DNA of 64,000 nucleotides from Octopus vulgaris (lineage: Eukaryota). The stretch covers positions 69,068,001-69,132,000 of the forward strand of contig OX597825.1 of assembly GCA_951406725.2 (NCBI GenBank), written 5' to 3'. The translations under genes and the position numbers were made by a program. The notes below the pieces were generated by a model that made no database searches, was not told where the DNA came from, and was given only the letters and a program-made list of their open reading frames with translations. Positions 22,922 through 54,753 of the stretch are shown piece after piece; the stretch's first letter is position 1; each line of letters opens with the position of its first letter.

Positions 22922-24691
22922 CTATTTTATGATATATATGTATATGTAATGTATAAAGAGATAGATATAGATAGACAGATATGCGCCTGTATACATGTGT
23001 TCACGCATTAATTGCGCAGCCAAGGTAATAATACTTTCATATCTAATTATATAACATACAAGGAAAACCAAGAATATATTGCACAATTTCAACTTAGGCT
23101 GCATTGTGGTTAAAGTGGCTGAAATATTAGACGCTGACATTCCTGTAATGTTACGCTAACATAATCAATCTTTACATGTAGTTACTGTCCTCTCTTAATG
23201 CGTTTGGCAACGCTGTATGCTGGTTAGTTCTAATATACTAATCAAAGCATAAATGGCACCCTGTATATTGAGAGTAAGAGACAATTTCACAATGTTCCAT
23301 TTTCGTTTTGCGAAATGCGGATTTCTAGTCAGACTAAATATAGTTTTCTGCTAGTATGTTGATATACACTAACTATGTATCTGTCTAAACCTATAAATAC
23401 ATATACAAACAAACATTCGTACATACATACACACACATAGTCACACACAGAGAAACACACGAACATATAAAATATATATATATATATATTGTTTTCTTCT
23501 ATTCATTTCCACGTTTCAGTCATTTGACTGCGGCCATACTGGAGCATCACTTTAAAGGGTTTTAGTCGTAGAAATCGACCTCGGGACTTATTCTTTGTTT
23601 TGTAAGCTTAGTACTTATTTTATCCGCCTCATTTGTTGAACGTTACGGAGACATAAACACATCACTATCGTTGTGGGGGACAAAATCAGACACAAAGTCA
23701 CACACACCCATATGCATATATATATATATATATATATACATGTATTAGCATATGAAGTTTATGATTAAATTATAGAGTGAATTTCTACAAAGTTAATCAT
23801 ATCTGTCATAAAATGGAGGAGATAAGATATCAAAAAGTTGTAAGAAGAGTATTCATGCATACGATCATTTCGTACATAGATATAAATTCATTTTCAGAAT
23901 TTGCAAATATCAAAGTACTCATCAGAGCAGAAAGGATAAGAACTTAAAAGAAAGAACAGAGAAGTTGGCCCTATGAGTTTCATGTCTATTTGTTCCTATC
24001 CCTGTATAATAGTGATGGGAGTCATGTTAATTATTTAACCACAACTAATGGATGAACGGTTAGCGGATGATATACATATAGAAATATCGATAACTTTCTC
24101 TCTATAGATTATTATAGATTAGCTAATTATAACTCCATATATGAAGAGTAGGGCGAGAAAACGGTACCGAGTGTAAAGTAAATCTAACTGTTGAAAACAA
24201 TACTTGGTATGTTTTTTAAAAAAGCAATCATAAGATGAAAAAAGTTTAGCATAAAGAAATTAGGTTTGTGAAGCTTATAACAGAAAGTTAATGTAGACGG
24301 TGATCAAAAATAGGGGAAGAAGAAGGAATTTGAAAGAATGAAGTAGAAGAATATTAAGGACTTGTTTACTCAAAAGCAGTATTTACGGCAACAGGAAATA
24401 ATAATAAAGGAGAAACCGGGGAAAAATAGTAATAGGATTGCAGTCATGAAGATTAACGTTGTATTATACGTACGAAGGCTACTTTTAAGAAAAGTAAGAA
24501 AAAGCAATTTAGGAGATGCAATAAGAAAAATATAGAAGCGATAAATTAGAGAGGGTGAAAAGAAAACGAAATTAGACTTCTGTAGGGGAGATAAATAAGA
24601 AGTAGGGATCCAAAAGTGAAAAACATTCTGAAAACACATCAATTCATCAAATTCAAAGAGAAACGCAAATCGCTGAAACGACTTCTGACAA

Positions 24692-25129
24692 ATGCGAAGC
24701 TTTACACAACAACTGCGAAACCAATGGTTAAAAAAATGTGGACGCCCAAACTTTAGAACAAACCCCAACCTATTGGAAGGCTCGCAAATCCTATTCAAAC
24801 AAGAACAGAAGTTCACAATTAAAATCAACTTCACTTGTGCTTCACAGAATCTAATTTATGTTATAATTTGTTCAGGTTATGGACAAAACTATATAGGGCA
24901 GACAAGTATGGCCTTAAGACAGAGAACCTCAACACATAAGGAACAAATACATTTCTCACAGTACAGTCAAATATATTTGAGTGAACACATAGAGGGATGT
25001 GCAGGTAATAACCAACCAAATTTCACAGTTATCTCAATCTACCAGTTCACAGAAAGAATCTCTGTACAAGAATGCTTAGATAAAGAGTGTATATTTATCG
25101 AAAAATACAGAACATGCCTGAATATGTAA
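24692..25129 (+). pseudogene. GIY-YIG endonuclease domain of a Penelope-like element (5'-truncated)
   Basis: ORF reads KCGRPN...NFTCASQNLIYVIICSGYGQNYIGQTSMALRQRTSTHKEQI...LSEHI...KECIFIEKY..LN. Confidence 0.85.
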
Positions 25130-43422: not shown

Positions 43423-43815
43423 TCTTTATATATAAAAGAGAGGTTGTGTGTTTGTCTCCTACGATTTAGATTCCTAACTACTCCCACATTTTGCGGTGCA
43501 GTTTAACCAAAACCGGGTATCTTATAGTCGTGATTCATATCGAGCCCTTCTGGGTATTAGCGCGCGTCTACGATGAGTCTACGATTTAAAAAAAAATTTA
43601 CCATCAATTTTCCCCATTTTTAATGCATTTTTTGGCATATATAAGGGAAGTAACTCTCTAAAAATTTATTATTAAATCTCAGAACGTAAAAAGCTACAGT
43701 AACACCCCCCTTTGTGGCTAGCCATACTGAGATGGCTATTATACTTTACATCTCTAAAAATGCTTATATAGTTATTTCCCTTACAAACCCGAGCAACGCC
43801 GGGCGATACTGCTAG
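43423..43815 (+). mobile_element. Non-autonomous Helitron
   Basis: A|TC 5' end, subterminal hairpin cccgagcaacgccggg, CTAG|T 3' end and no TSD. A second copy lies at 54110-54432. Confidence 0.9.
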
Positions 43816-44043
43816 TAATATATAAATAAATGCTTATATACATACATATATGTCCATACCTACATATGTATGTAAATATATATATGCATATATGGGTATA
43901 GGACATAAAAAAAAACGTTGAACACAATGAGAAACGAAAACAAAAACATAAAAGGTGGTGTAGACAACAAACATGTATTACACTAATACATCTGTTTGTT
44001 GTCTTACACCACCTGTCTTCGTTTTTTTGTGAATTTTCTCCAT

Positions 44044-46147: not shown

Positions 46148-46320
46148 CATATATACGACGAGCTTCTTTCACTTTTCTTCGACCAAATCCACTCACAAGA
46201 ATTTGGTCGGCCCGAGGCTATAGTAGAAGGCACTAGCCCAAGGTGCCACGCAGTGAGAATGAACCCGGAACCATGTGGTTCGTAAGCAAGCTACTTACCA
46301 CACAGCCACTCCTGCGCCTA
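45888..46320 (-). mobile_element. SINE family C, full length
   Basis: Near-identical to 42621-43028. Confidence 0.9.
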
Positions 46321-46326
46321 TACTGT

Positions 46327-46787
46327 GAAAGTGTGCCTAAAGCCAGCTGGAGACGATGATCTCCTGGGGCTAAAGGCTACAGTAACACCCACCCTTAGTG
46401 GTTAGCCATATTGAGATGGCTAGTATACTTTATGTTGTCGAGCGGTTACTGTTTACATCTCGTTCAGAGATTTATTATTGCTTGCAGACAGTTTTTCGAA
46501 ATCAGTGACGGAAGTTACTAGAAAAACCCATAAGTATTTGCAAACAGGTCTTCCTTTCATCGTAAACCGGTGATTACCGTACGTTGACAAGAGGCAAATT
46601 TCCTCGAAACTGCAGTTCGTGCGTATCGCTTAGGTTTACGAGAGAGGGATGACCTCCCTTTGCAAATACCATAAGGGCACAGAAAGTGTGCCTAAAGCCA
46701 GCTGGAGACGATGATCTCCTGGGGCTAAAAGCTACAGTAACACCCACCCTTAGTGGTTAGCCATATTGAGATGGCTAGTATACTTTA
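46327..46787 (+). mobile_element. Candidate retrozyme-like element: 355-bp unit with 106-bp terminal direct repeats
   Basis: 46327-46432 matches 46682-46787 with 1 mismatch. The interior is rich in hairpins and contains a hammerhead. No ORF is present in the track. Confidence 0.7.
46578..46623 (+). ncRNA. Type I hammerhead ribozyme, U3-A8 core variant
   Basis: Stem I cgtacg/cgtgcg; core TTGACAA (46584-90); stem II gagg-caaattt-cctc; GAAA (46606-09); stem III ac-tgca-gt within the palindrome aactgcagtt; GUU triplet with predicted cleavage at 46617/46618. Confidence 0.8.
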
Positions 46788-48191
46788 CGGTTTGAAGGAA
46801 GTTAAACGGTTATATAGTTCTTTCATAATGGAGCTTTCCTTTATCCCATCGTAAAACGCAGAGCTGCATTTTTTCATATATAAGATTGGTTTCTCACAGG
46901 TTTCAGAGTTAAAGTATTCAAGCGATCATCTCTTCCACTTTATACTTTTGTTGTCGAATAGCCAAGAATGAAACGTAATGTCAAATCTATTAGGATTTCA
47001 CTTAAGAACGGAGGCGTTAAGCAAATACTAAGTTATTCGTTTCTCTTCATTCGAGCCCCAGCAATTTGCCTTCTTCATGGAGAACCCCCAAAGATTTTAT
47101 ACACTCCACAATTATCACACAAATATTGTTGAGTATCAAAGTACCATGTCTGATTATCTTCGATATTTTAATAATTCTATAATATTGAACTGATTAGCTT
47201 GATTGTAGAAAGTGGTGCTTAAAGCAAGATACAGAGATTTATGGTTGCTCTTGTTGATTGAATGTAATTCATATTAAATAACTGAAGAACAGTACGGAGG
47301 TTTTGAAAGCAAAATATTTTGAAATTGTTTATTTCGCTCGTACAACCGAATTCCATACTTTGAGCTTCGAAATTTTAAAGGCTATTGTGTAAAGGGTAAT
47401 AAGGAAATTTTTCGTCGATTGCATTTCCCTACAAATAAGACAAACATATCTATTTTTGGTATGAAACCATAGATTTCAGAGGGAACAGGGTTAGGAGTTT
47501 AAATTTACACCGATACCTGGTTATTCCTTTATTTTACCGATCATAAAAGACTGAAAAACAAACGTGGCTTTCTCTGGACTGTACCTAAACACCGCAAATC
47601 ATTTCTGTTCAATATTCTAACGATTGATCCAGATAATATTTTTAATCAAAATTATTCCTTAGAATTAAACTATGAGTAATGTTACTTAGTCAACCGTTTA
47701 GATAGTCACACCTGTCAATGTATAATCACTCAGTATCTTTATATACATTAGTCATCTACATCTTGGGCGGAACTGTTAAGTAAATAAATAACTGATGAGG
47801 TCTAAAACTACCGCAAAGTGGATATAGTTATCTCAGTAAAGCGTACCTGTTGAACAACATGTTTCTTTGTTTTAGATTTGGGAATTGACACCATAGCATT
47901 TCTTATTCAGAATTTAACATTACGTTAAATAAGAAACTTATTTTCCCTCAGGAAACTAGTGCAGACTACAACCGCCTCTACTTAACTATACAAAGACAAG
48001 AACCGACTAACTCAAGCGAATTGAAAAACGGTTATTATATCATGGCAATCAGCACACAGAAAATGAAGACAACTGTGATATTTCTTCTCCTACGTGATTT
48101 GTTTATAGGAAAATAACTGGTGTCATGTAACTAATTGTAGATCAGATTTATTGCTTATTTTGGTTTAGTGTCCAAAAATAACGACCTATCT

Positions 48192-48255: not shown

Positions 48256-49438
48256 CAGGGGTTGGACAAAATAATGGGAACAACTTAAAAATTCAAATAA
48301 ATTCATTTTAATATGGGTTAGGTCCGACTATGGCACTAATTACAGCTTGAATTCTACGAGGTATGGACTCGTAAAAAGTTTGAATTTTTGTCCATTCTTC
48401 AACTAAAACAGCCTCCGGTTCTTGTAGTGATGATGGTGGAGGATATCGACTCCTTACTTGTTTTTCTAAAATGCATAAAAAATGTTCAATAATATTGAGA
48501 TCTGGGGACTGTGGTAGCCAAATAAAATGTTTAACTTCATTAAAATATTCCTCGTGCCATTCAGTAACAACTTTAGCTGTGTGAATTGGTGCATTATCAT
48601 CCTGAAAGATTGTGTTTCCTTCTGGAAACAGTTCTGCAACCATAGGAGGAATTTGATCATATAAAATGCTTAAGTAGTCTTGACTATTAATTCTGCCATG
48701 AAAGGAAACCATAGCCCCGCAAATCATCACAGATCATCCTTCGTGTTTAACAGTTGGAAGAAGGCAGTCGTCTGGATAAAATGCTTCTTTTGGCTATCTG
48801 CATGCATATACTCAAAAATAAGGTAAAGGTTGACTGACTCGTCCGAGAAAATAACATTTTTCCATTGTTATAGGGACCTATTCTATAGGTTTTTACTCCA
48901 CTGTAAATGCTTTGCAAAGTTTGTTTTTCAAAATAGTGGTTTTCTGATCGTAGACCCCGTGAAATCCGGCTTTCTGTAGCTCCCGGCAAACAGTTTTTAT
49001 GGAAACTGGGTTCTCGAGGTGGTCATTAAGCTCTACAGTAATTGTGAGTACTGTACGTTTGTGATTTTTTCTAACAATTCGCGTAAGAATCCGACGGTCC
49101 CTATTAGAAAGTTTTGGTTTCTTGCAGAGTTTTGTTTCGACGACGAAGTTTTTACCTCTTTCTCAAAGGCTGTCATTACTTTCGAAACAGTGCTTCTTGA
49201 TACACCAAACATTTCGGCTGTTTTCGTTACGCTAGCGCCTGTCATACGAGCAGATAGATTTATCATTTTAATGAATTTTAATTACCTTTTTTTGATGATA
49301 TCTGAAAAGAAACAGAAATTTTAGCAAAACATAATAAATCACAAAAATAAAAATAACCAAGCTTTTGACAGTTTTGTAGATATTTCAAAATTATGATGCT
49401 ATGACACTGGGTATTTCCATTATTTTGTCCAACCCCTG
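48256..49438 (-). mobile_element. Tc1 DNA transposon, both ends intact, transposase disrupted
   Basis: TIRs caggggttggacaaaataatgg / ccattattttgtccaacccctg flanked by TA. HTH ARMTGASVTKTAEMFGVSRSTVSKVM and catalytic IFQDDNAPIHTA...PQSPDLNIIEH (DD34E-type) lie in different frames. Confidence 0.95.
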
Positions 49439-54109: not shown

Positions 54110-54432
54110 TCTTTATATATAAAAGTGAAGTTGTGTGTCTGTCTCCTACAATTTAGATTCCTAAATACTCCCAGATTTTGCGGTGCAGTGTAACCAAAAG
54201 CGGGTATCTTATAGTCGTGATTTTTTCCCATTTTTAATGCATTTTGTTTGCTATTATATAAGGTAAGTAACTCTCTAAAAATGTATTATTAAATCTCAGA
54301 ACGTAAAAAGCTACAGTAACACCCGCCTTTGTGGTTAGCCATATTGAGATGGCTATTATACTTTACATCTCTAAAAATGCTTATATAGTTATTTCCCTTA
54401 CAAACCCGAGCAACGCCGGGCGATACTGCTAG
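54110..54432 (+). mobile_element. Non-autonomous Helitron (internally deleted copy)
   Basis: A|TC...cccgagcaacgccgggcgatactgCTAG|T; matches 43423-43815. Confidence 0.9.
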
Positions 54433-54753
54433 TTTTATATAAGTAGATGTGAGAATGTATGGCGATATATAGCTTTCATCTTTTATTTTCACTTATTGCA
54501 TCAATTTAGTTTCACTTATTGCATCAATTTGAAAGGTGAAGTCAAACAAAGGTGAAGTCAAACAAATTGTCTTTAGTATTTACTTTTTTAAAGTTTGGTA
54601 CTTACGCTAATGGTCTGTCTTGCCGACACCCTCAAGTTATTGGGACGTAAACAAACCAACACTAGCTATCAAACGCAAGGGTAACACACACACACGCGTA
54701 TATAAAACGGATTTTAACTGTTTTCTGATTTTAAAACGGTTACGCGTTCAAAA

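Follow-up and report, generated by a model that had tools for sequence, protein, structure and literature searches.

A stretch of 64,000 nucleotides of the Octopus vulgaris genome (contig OX597825.1, positions 69,068,001 to 69,132,000 of the forward strand; hereafter the window) contains a structured sequence that repeats itself after 355 nucleotides. The question raised by this locus is what kind of element it represents and which machinery inserted it. An earlier note, made from the letters of the window, had proposed a greater-than-unit cDNA of a retrozyme or viroid-like circular RNA. Self-comparison confirms the direct repeat on which that proposal was built: 46327-46432 and 46682-46787 are 106 nt long and 99% identical, with one mismatch and a spacing of 355. 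The stretch 46327-46787 had also been described as having no open reading frame, and the longest one that we find there encodes 57 amino acids. We number the unit from u1 = 46327, counting round its 355 nucleotides. One unit (u1-u355) occupies 46327..46681 of the + strand and starts at a chance 5' truncation point rather than at a natural unit start. The second round (u1-u106; 46682..46787, +) stops at the 'short' fixed 3' end of the family to which this copy belongs, which we call family A, and we infer that this end, u106 in the window copy, is a start site of reverse transcription. The first round also contains an internal copy of a 'tail' of about 50 nt (u107-u157; 46433..46483, +), whose 3' edge is the second fixed end of family A. 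The repeat itself places the 3' limit at 46787, as had been noted, but the insertion probably ends at 46789 because the two bases after 46787 agree with the family majority. The whole insertion (46327..46789, +) is a 5'-truncated 1.3-mer of family A in direct orientation, with neither an inverted arm nor a clear target duplication.

Directly upstream of the copy lies a high-copy SINE-like element (46160..46322, +, start approximate), which is covered by thousands of variant contigs from sequencing runs and which we take to be an octopus tRNA-derived SINE. The copy landed at the TA-type 3' end of this element. The unit is non-coding, has no LTR and has a GC content of 0.44, and thus lies within the limits used for non-LTR retrozymes (150-450 bp, GC < 50%).

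By inspection and covariation, we placed a predicted type I hammerhead ribozyme at 46578..46623 of the + strand. Its predicted parts are stem I (46578-83/46618-23, u252-257/u292-297), the core UUGACAA with a U3-A8 variant (46584-90, u258-264), stem II (46591-605, u265-279), the GAAA (46606-09) and a 2-bp stem III with a palindromic UGCA loop (46609-16). The ribozyme would cut after 46617 (u291, +), in agreement with the site 46617/46618 put forward earlier. All core positions are in place, and G5, A6, A9, GAAA and U16.1 are conserved at 97-100%. Among 93 copies, the 3-8 tertiary pair is kept in 90, as U3-A8 in 60 and as C3-G8 in 30, with the remaining 3 mixed; the cleavage triplet is GUC in 87 and loop 3 is UGCA in 81. 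U3-A8 is a known natural hammerhead variant in the Penelope-like elements (PLEs) of Schistosoma (PMC4209133). U4C is found in at least 23 of the 93 copies, and one subfamily has the core CCGAAGA and a stem II closed by a C-A mismatch; judging from the sequence, U4C and this closure may reduce ribozyme activity in that subfamily. Rfam hammerhead models matched neither the window stretch (E-values up to 5) nor any of five loci (E-values up to 0.5); the only Rfam rows obtained were microsatellite-driven miRNA matches. The window copy has a single ribozyme whose triplet is GUU; this change from GUC, as well as a change in loop 2, is private to it when compared with the 93 copies. Since the release of a unit needs two cuts, the window copy is probably inert, a dead end that is unable to release a unit-length monomer.

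The strongest folding is found on the + strand. The + strand fold of the window copy reaches -163.9 kcal/mol (z -7.21, with none of 100 shuffles as good) and the - strand fold -147.6 (z -4.56). When the unit is folded as a circle, the + strand gives -119.6 (z -8.1, 40 shuffles) with G-U in 14 of 116 pairs, and the - strand gives -102.6 (z -4.5) with G-U in 8 of 110 pairs. The + circle has 65% of its bases paired, which makes the previous description of a unit folding almost throughout slightly overstated. Likewise, the seven arm pairs named at that time are all present in the sequence, but some of them are mutually exclusive alternatives. The helix of 135 nt capped by the hammerhead is recovered as a predicted rod of 136 nt (46534..46669, +), which extends hammerhead stem I and would hold both ends of the cleaved monomer close to each other. 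A predicted 8-bp helix (u53-60/u119-126; 46379..46452, +) encloses the short 3' end site and shows compensatory change in family B, described below, with 96% of cells paired and two pairs changed on both sides. Overall, 19 of 105 proposed pairs have changes on both sides, compared with 10.0 +/- 2.1 in shuffles (0 of 500); this count, from 20 related monomers (15 of family A and 5 of family B) and a structure taken from the window copy, represents few independent events and is not a p-value. RNAalifold alone missed most of the rod, and hand-set structures were counted instead. Together, the covariation of these pairs and that of the 3-8 core support the selection on RNA structure that the earlier note had suspected. 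In addition, u2-12 (46328-46338) can pair with either 46423-46431 or 46675-46681, in mutually exclusive helices that are both kept in family B. One of the u2-12 helices closes right at the short end site, and the RNA may thus switch structure close to the start site.

To place the window copy in its family, we searched the 2.8-Gb genome (227 contigs). The 461-mer returned 2833 first-look candidates and the hammerhead part alone 1250; these are not copy numbers, and the former count is inflated by a 61-nt fragment that is borne by a Helitron. This fragment, u46-106 with a short inverted tail remnant, lies in the window at 43689..43748 (+) inside a Helitron-like non-autonomous element, and a sequence match reveals a second copy at 54306..54365 (+). 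The host element (43440-43817 and 54110-54433), which we assume to be Helitron-like from its 3' hairpin followed by CTAGT, carries an old mini-insertion, composed of an inverted tail stub and u46-106, and has multiplied it; the same mini-insertion occurs in loci L061 and L231. Elsewhere in the window, a frame at 48308-48733 (-) has the look of a transposase remnant, presumably of the Tc1/mariner type. The best copies of family A are 92-97% identical. Runs labelled with three organisms contain at least 70% of the sampled words, and family A may therefore occur across related species.

In family A, we analyzed 79 distinct loci with 120 outer 3' ends, of which 70 fall at u100-113 (short), 42 at u149-166 (tail) and 8 elsewhere; all were the loci that best matched some part of the window copy, a selection that enriches short ends. 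Thus 112 of the 120 ends lie at two fixed sites about 50 nt apart. A head-to-head inverted arm is present in 41 of the 79 loci, and these comprise 31 with one short and one tail end, 3 with two short ends, 7 with one irregular end and none with two tail ends. Flanks were compared in 53 loci. They share at least 8 nt in 23 of 31 inverted insertions, with a median of 12 and some of them being TA runs, compared with 9.5% of mismatched flank pairs; in non-inverted copies, a duplication of at least 8 nt occurs in 8 of 22, with a median of 5. The 5' ends vary, with 5' truncation, partial tandems and cDNAs of 0.4 to 2.3 units. A cluster of 5' ends at u204-209 was set aside, since a variable stretch that breaks the alignment accounts for at least part of it (flank of L223). 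The circularly permuted ends expected by the earlier note are therefore found on the 5' side only, the 3' ends being fixed at two sites and accompanied by inverted arms and target duplications. This anatomy contradicts an origin of the sequence as an internal part of a MITE or Helitron. It matches the insertion pattern of PLEs, which consists of a partial tandem, an inverted truncated arm and a tail on one end (PMC8557442, PMC3846280). In the anole, the protein of the PLE makes nicks on both sides of AT-rich duplexes, and its reverse transcription begins at two internal sites that define the tail (PMC11167929). Fixed ends, inverted arms and target duplications therefore point to Penelope-like enzymes, which the earlier note had not named.

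To define the RNA from which the copies were made, we took loci that had been selected through their 3' part and followed 33 segments of more than 100 nt toward the predicted cleavage site. Twenty cross it, 12 stop earlier and only one stops within 3 nt. A linear cleaved monomer is therefore rejected as the main template, with 1 of 33 5' ends at the predicted cut site, and the 20 that cross it imply a circle or an uncleaved tandem. This agrees with the proposal of a greater-than-unit cDNA. Head-to-tail multimers, also anticipated, are present in the family as a 10-mer array and six dimers with two ribozymes, compared with the single ribozyme of the window copy. All six direct dimers have the same subfamily in both rounds, as both the circle and the linear tandem predict. 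The 10-unit array has PLE-type ends and lies inside a 12-bp duplication; we do not take it as proof of rolling-circle copying because its monomers share variants as a mosaic, which indicates that it was reshaped at the DNA level after insertion.

Between the two templates, we consider a circular RNA the probable one. Internal priming would shorten linear tandems at each round, the catalytic core persists in three families that have diverged, and comparable repeats in mussel occur mostly as circles (PMC7229834). On the other side, the anole PLE used mainly uncleaved RNA in vitro and inserted ribozyme mutants normally (PMC11167929), and in Xenopus one of nine predicted retrozyme dimers cleaved (10.64898/2026.07.22.740005). 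Contigs of four runs that we guessed to be RNA match the unit only as short pieces, and we count them neither for nor against a circle. The contigs from runs X1 and X7 show A>G differences at 46372, 46374, 46384, 46385 and 46404, positions at which G occurs in 0-1 of about 117-123 genomic copies; these sites could reflect A-to-I editing of the + strand.

The subfamily variants also allow the two arms of an insertion to be compared. Arms overlap in 35 pairs; we kept the 20 pairs with 19 or more diagnostic sites in common and dropped the other 15 as uninformative. The arms are concordant in 15 of the 20 (3-23% mismatch) and discordant in 5 (30-41%), the latter resembling unrelated loci, which differ on average at 30% of the diagnostic sites. 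Three of the discordant loci have short/tail ends, with a clean duplication in L013 and weaker ones in L028 and L044; L031 and L043 are complex. These mixed-subfamily arms suggest that two RNA templates may be used in one insertion event, and they are most simply read as the result of independent priming by each nick, at times on another RNA molecule. Later gene conversion is a possible alternative source of discordant arms. Published work has proposed self-priming on one template for inverted junctions (PMC3846280), and among the titles listed in a literature search on twin priming in Penelope, none addressed the question.

Family A has at least two sister families. In family B (2813 candidates), identity to A is 71-80% and the periods are 335-358; 19 of 21 motif matches show CUGAUGA, the canonical core, together with a palindromic UCGA loop. 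Family C (2734 candidates) has a 360-362-nt period, a U3-A8 core and a CAUG loop, and aligns with A from end to end with a score of 99.5, compared with a mean of -4 and a best of 33.5 in 100 shuffles. Unit lengths across the three families are about 350-362 nt. Families B and C keep the unit size, the hammerhead, a palindromic loop 3 and both fixed end sites at equivalent places. All three families diverge by about 27% or more, yet the catalytic core, the cut site and the palindromic loop 3 are maintained. Two further loci showed partial resemblance. L150:728-882 is distantly related to the unit (nhmmer E 1.5e-10) and may belong to a fourth family, one whose ribozyme region is altered. At L043:1463-1826, one arm is 83% identical to family A with family-B-like letters and would represent an intermediate subfamily or a chimera.

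If PLE enzymes moved these units, a partner might be recognizable in the same genome. We scored 150 of 6136 PLE candidates and compared 92 PLE loci, which sample part of the PLE families of the genome. Two families are young: the first has many 781-aa frames, and the second shows about 100% identity among its 40 best copies. Both combine RT and GIY-YIG with a CX4CXXC linker, a Neptune-type feature (PMC8557442), and both have minimal hammerheads. The tails of these two active families measure about 35 nt (in 12 of 30 and 2 of 9 loci), compared with about 50 in family A. Neither blastn nor nhmmer detected a PLE homologous to the unit in the 92 loci, apart from separate retrozyme insertions. One such insertion is the 75% match lying 600 bp behind the PLE of L118, which we rejected as a partner since 29 other copies of that PLE end before the match; the match is a family B insertion and not the pLTR of the PLE. 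The matches in L098, L144 and L150 were likewise separate retrozyme insertions. Family C and the 781-aa PLE family have in common the U3-A8 core UUGAUAA, the CAUG loop and a GAAACAUG stem III, a likeness that we treat as a lead only. The second PLE family shows signs of a recent burst (G000 C1:27841329-27850571 and L123-L152), with a tandem period of 4271, a CCGAAGA minimal hammerhead and (TA)n targets. The window itself contains a decayed PLE fragment (24689-25129, +) with a GIY-YIG-like frame resembling the 781-aa family, and no unit match was found near it.

Taken as a whole, it is very likely that this high-copy, hammerhead-bearing 355-nt repeat is a retrozyme-type parasite of PLEs. Our main reading, to which we assign a probability of roughly 0.6, is that of a non-LTR retrozyme that PLE enzymes copy and insert in trans, with circular RNA as the likely template. 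It retains from the earlier interpretation the non-LTR retrozyme-type unit with a type I hammerhead and the multimers, and abandons the free permutation of ends. The cycle would begin with + strand transcription of a dimer or a longer source copy. Paired hammerheads, probably dimers formed through the palindromic loop 3, would then cut at GUC, and a host ligase would close the resulting 355-nt monomer; this step draws on the conservation of the core and on the retrozymes of mussel and axolotl (PMC7229834). A PLE protein would place one nick in each strand of AT-rich DNA, with about 12 bp between them, and reverse transcription would start within the RNA at u106-110 or u150-160. Here the end positions and the duplications are observed, and the enzyme is proposed from PMC11167929. 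Copying that passes the ligation site would yield the observed cDNAs of 0.4 to 2.3 units with variable 5' ends. Priming at both nicks would produce an inverted insertion in which one arm is short and the other tailed, the two sometimes coming from different RNA molecules; this anatomy is seen in the loci, and its cause is what we propose.

The same products may have arisen from a non-autonomous PLE parasite that is copied from uncleaved linear tandems, with occasional template jumps that rebuild dimers and a hammerhead that acts late or elsewhere. This possibility predicts the same read-through of the cut site and the same agreement of successive rounds in subfamily, dimers and longer sources are present in the genome, and the anole PLE preferred unprocessed RNA in vitro (PMC11167929). 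However, because the 3' start site is internal, linear tandems lose length at each generation and multimers must somehow be rebuilt. The maintenance of core, cut site and palindromic loop 3 in three families also argues against it, as does the finding that equivalent mollusc repeats are mostly circular in vivo (PMC7229834). We therefore regard it as rather unlikely, though it is the most credible of the alternatives. Far less probable is that the copies are 5'-truncated 3' ends, composed of pLTR and tail, of an unsampled autonomous PLE. Their end anatomy is the same as that of PLE stumps, the PLE families were sampled in part (150 of 6136 candidates), and family C resembles one active PLE in core and stem III as described above. 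Nevertheless, 5' extensions enter another round of the unit and never an ORF, the hammerhead recurs within about 100 nt past the tail, which closes the unit on itself, and no PLE-like frame longer than 220 aa stands out in 80 family B and C loci.

The remaining explanations dispense with PLEs as the driving force. An endogenized viroid-like circle that replicates from RNA to RNA and was inserted incidentally would fit the size, the strong fold, the ribozyme and the scarce sequence tie to the sampled PLEs. Against it, a hammerhead was noticed, by inspection, on one strand only, the insertions are numerous and stereotyped PLE products, and the GC content of 44% and the branched fold are like those of animal retrozymes. 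The RNA-to-RNA replication implied by the term 'viroid-like' is without support here, and we consider this origin very improbable. Even less credit is due to a satellite, MITE or Helitron fragment propagated as DNA, with structure arising by chance. The 61-nt piece in the Helitron-like element and the array reshuffled at the DNA level are what such an origin would produce, but the dispersed copies already contradict it, with 5' truncations that vary, 3' ends that are fixed, inverted arms and duplications of 12 bp, and so does the covarying 3-8 tertiary pair.

Metazoan non-LTR retrozymes, their circles and the hypothesis of PLE mobilization have been published (Cervera and de la Pena 2020, PMC7229834), and the octopus unit closely resembles those elements, especially the 350-390-nt repeats of Mytilus galloprovincialis. 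The features in common are a non-coding unit of 150-450 bp with GC < 50%, a canonical type I hammerhead whose stem III has 2 bp and a tetraloop, copies that are dispersed as well as in tandem, target duplications of more than 4 bp and coexisting PLEs. The octopus families differ from the retrozymes described there in that U3-A8 is the majority core of family A, and in that the insertion ends could be located at two fixed sites of the PLE type, accompanied by inverted arms. Cleavage and circles were demonstrated in that work (PMC7229834) and are predicted for the octopus family, and the comparison with the mussel repeats covers unit, ribozyme and insertion features. More recently, animal retrozymes were proposed to be non-autonomous PLE sequences (Li, Clavereau, Pollet, bioRxiv 10.64898/2026.07.22.740005), with a link based on co-occurrence and pLTR homology in 35 species, none of them a mollusc. 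We arrive at the same dependence on PLEs from insertion anatomy, with no pLTR homologue found.

The octopus unit also shares several traits with EN+ PLEs such as Penelope/Poseidon and Neptune (PMC8557442, PMC3846280, PMC11167929), namely partial tandems, an inverted 5'-truncated arm, a tail on one end, duplications of 8-12 bp, AT-rich and (TA)n targets, and a hammerhead upstream of two start sites. Unlike them, it has no ORF, its tail is about 50 nt long (about 59 in family C) instead of 30-40, and its hammerhead is a full canonical one on a long rod rather than minimal. MRC1 of Chlamys (PMC8557442) is comparable as a non-coding, pLTR-forming, head-to-tail PLE parasite; elements of that type resemble their autonomous partner at the 3' end and mostly lack a hammerhead in the account given there, and in this the octopus family differs. 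Among the titles listed in literature searches, we found no report of a cephalopod retrozyme. The word 'ribozyme' has no occurrence in the main text of the Octopus vulgaris repeat paper (PMC13282606). Family A may already have a database name.

The octopus family is thus likely a newly found retrozyme of a published class, with unusually clear insertion evidence, and probably extends this class to a cephalopod. The mobilizer of animal retrozymes was a hypothesis in 2020 (PMC7229834) and gained support from co-occurrence and homology in 2026 (10.64898/2026.07.22.740005). The marks of PLE insertion on a purely non-coding unit provide independent and more direct support for PLE mobilization. Since the unit is short and its subfamilies are marked, each insertion records the template of each arm. 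Subfamily markers therefore make it possible to test whether the circle serves as template and whether the inverted arm of Penelope derives from a second RNA molecule. As a tentative view, which we hold to be less probable than not, the octopus may host an old and still-spreading radiation of circular RNAs, with at least three families and thousands of copies, that has lost its resemblance to PLEs and is recognized by shape alone. The PLE would then be a two-armed machine, in which the arms prime on separate RNA molecules and use different start sites. If true, such two-armed priming would explain the long-unexplained inverted-plus-tail structure of Penelope insertions.
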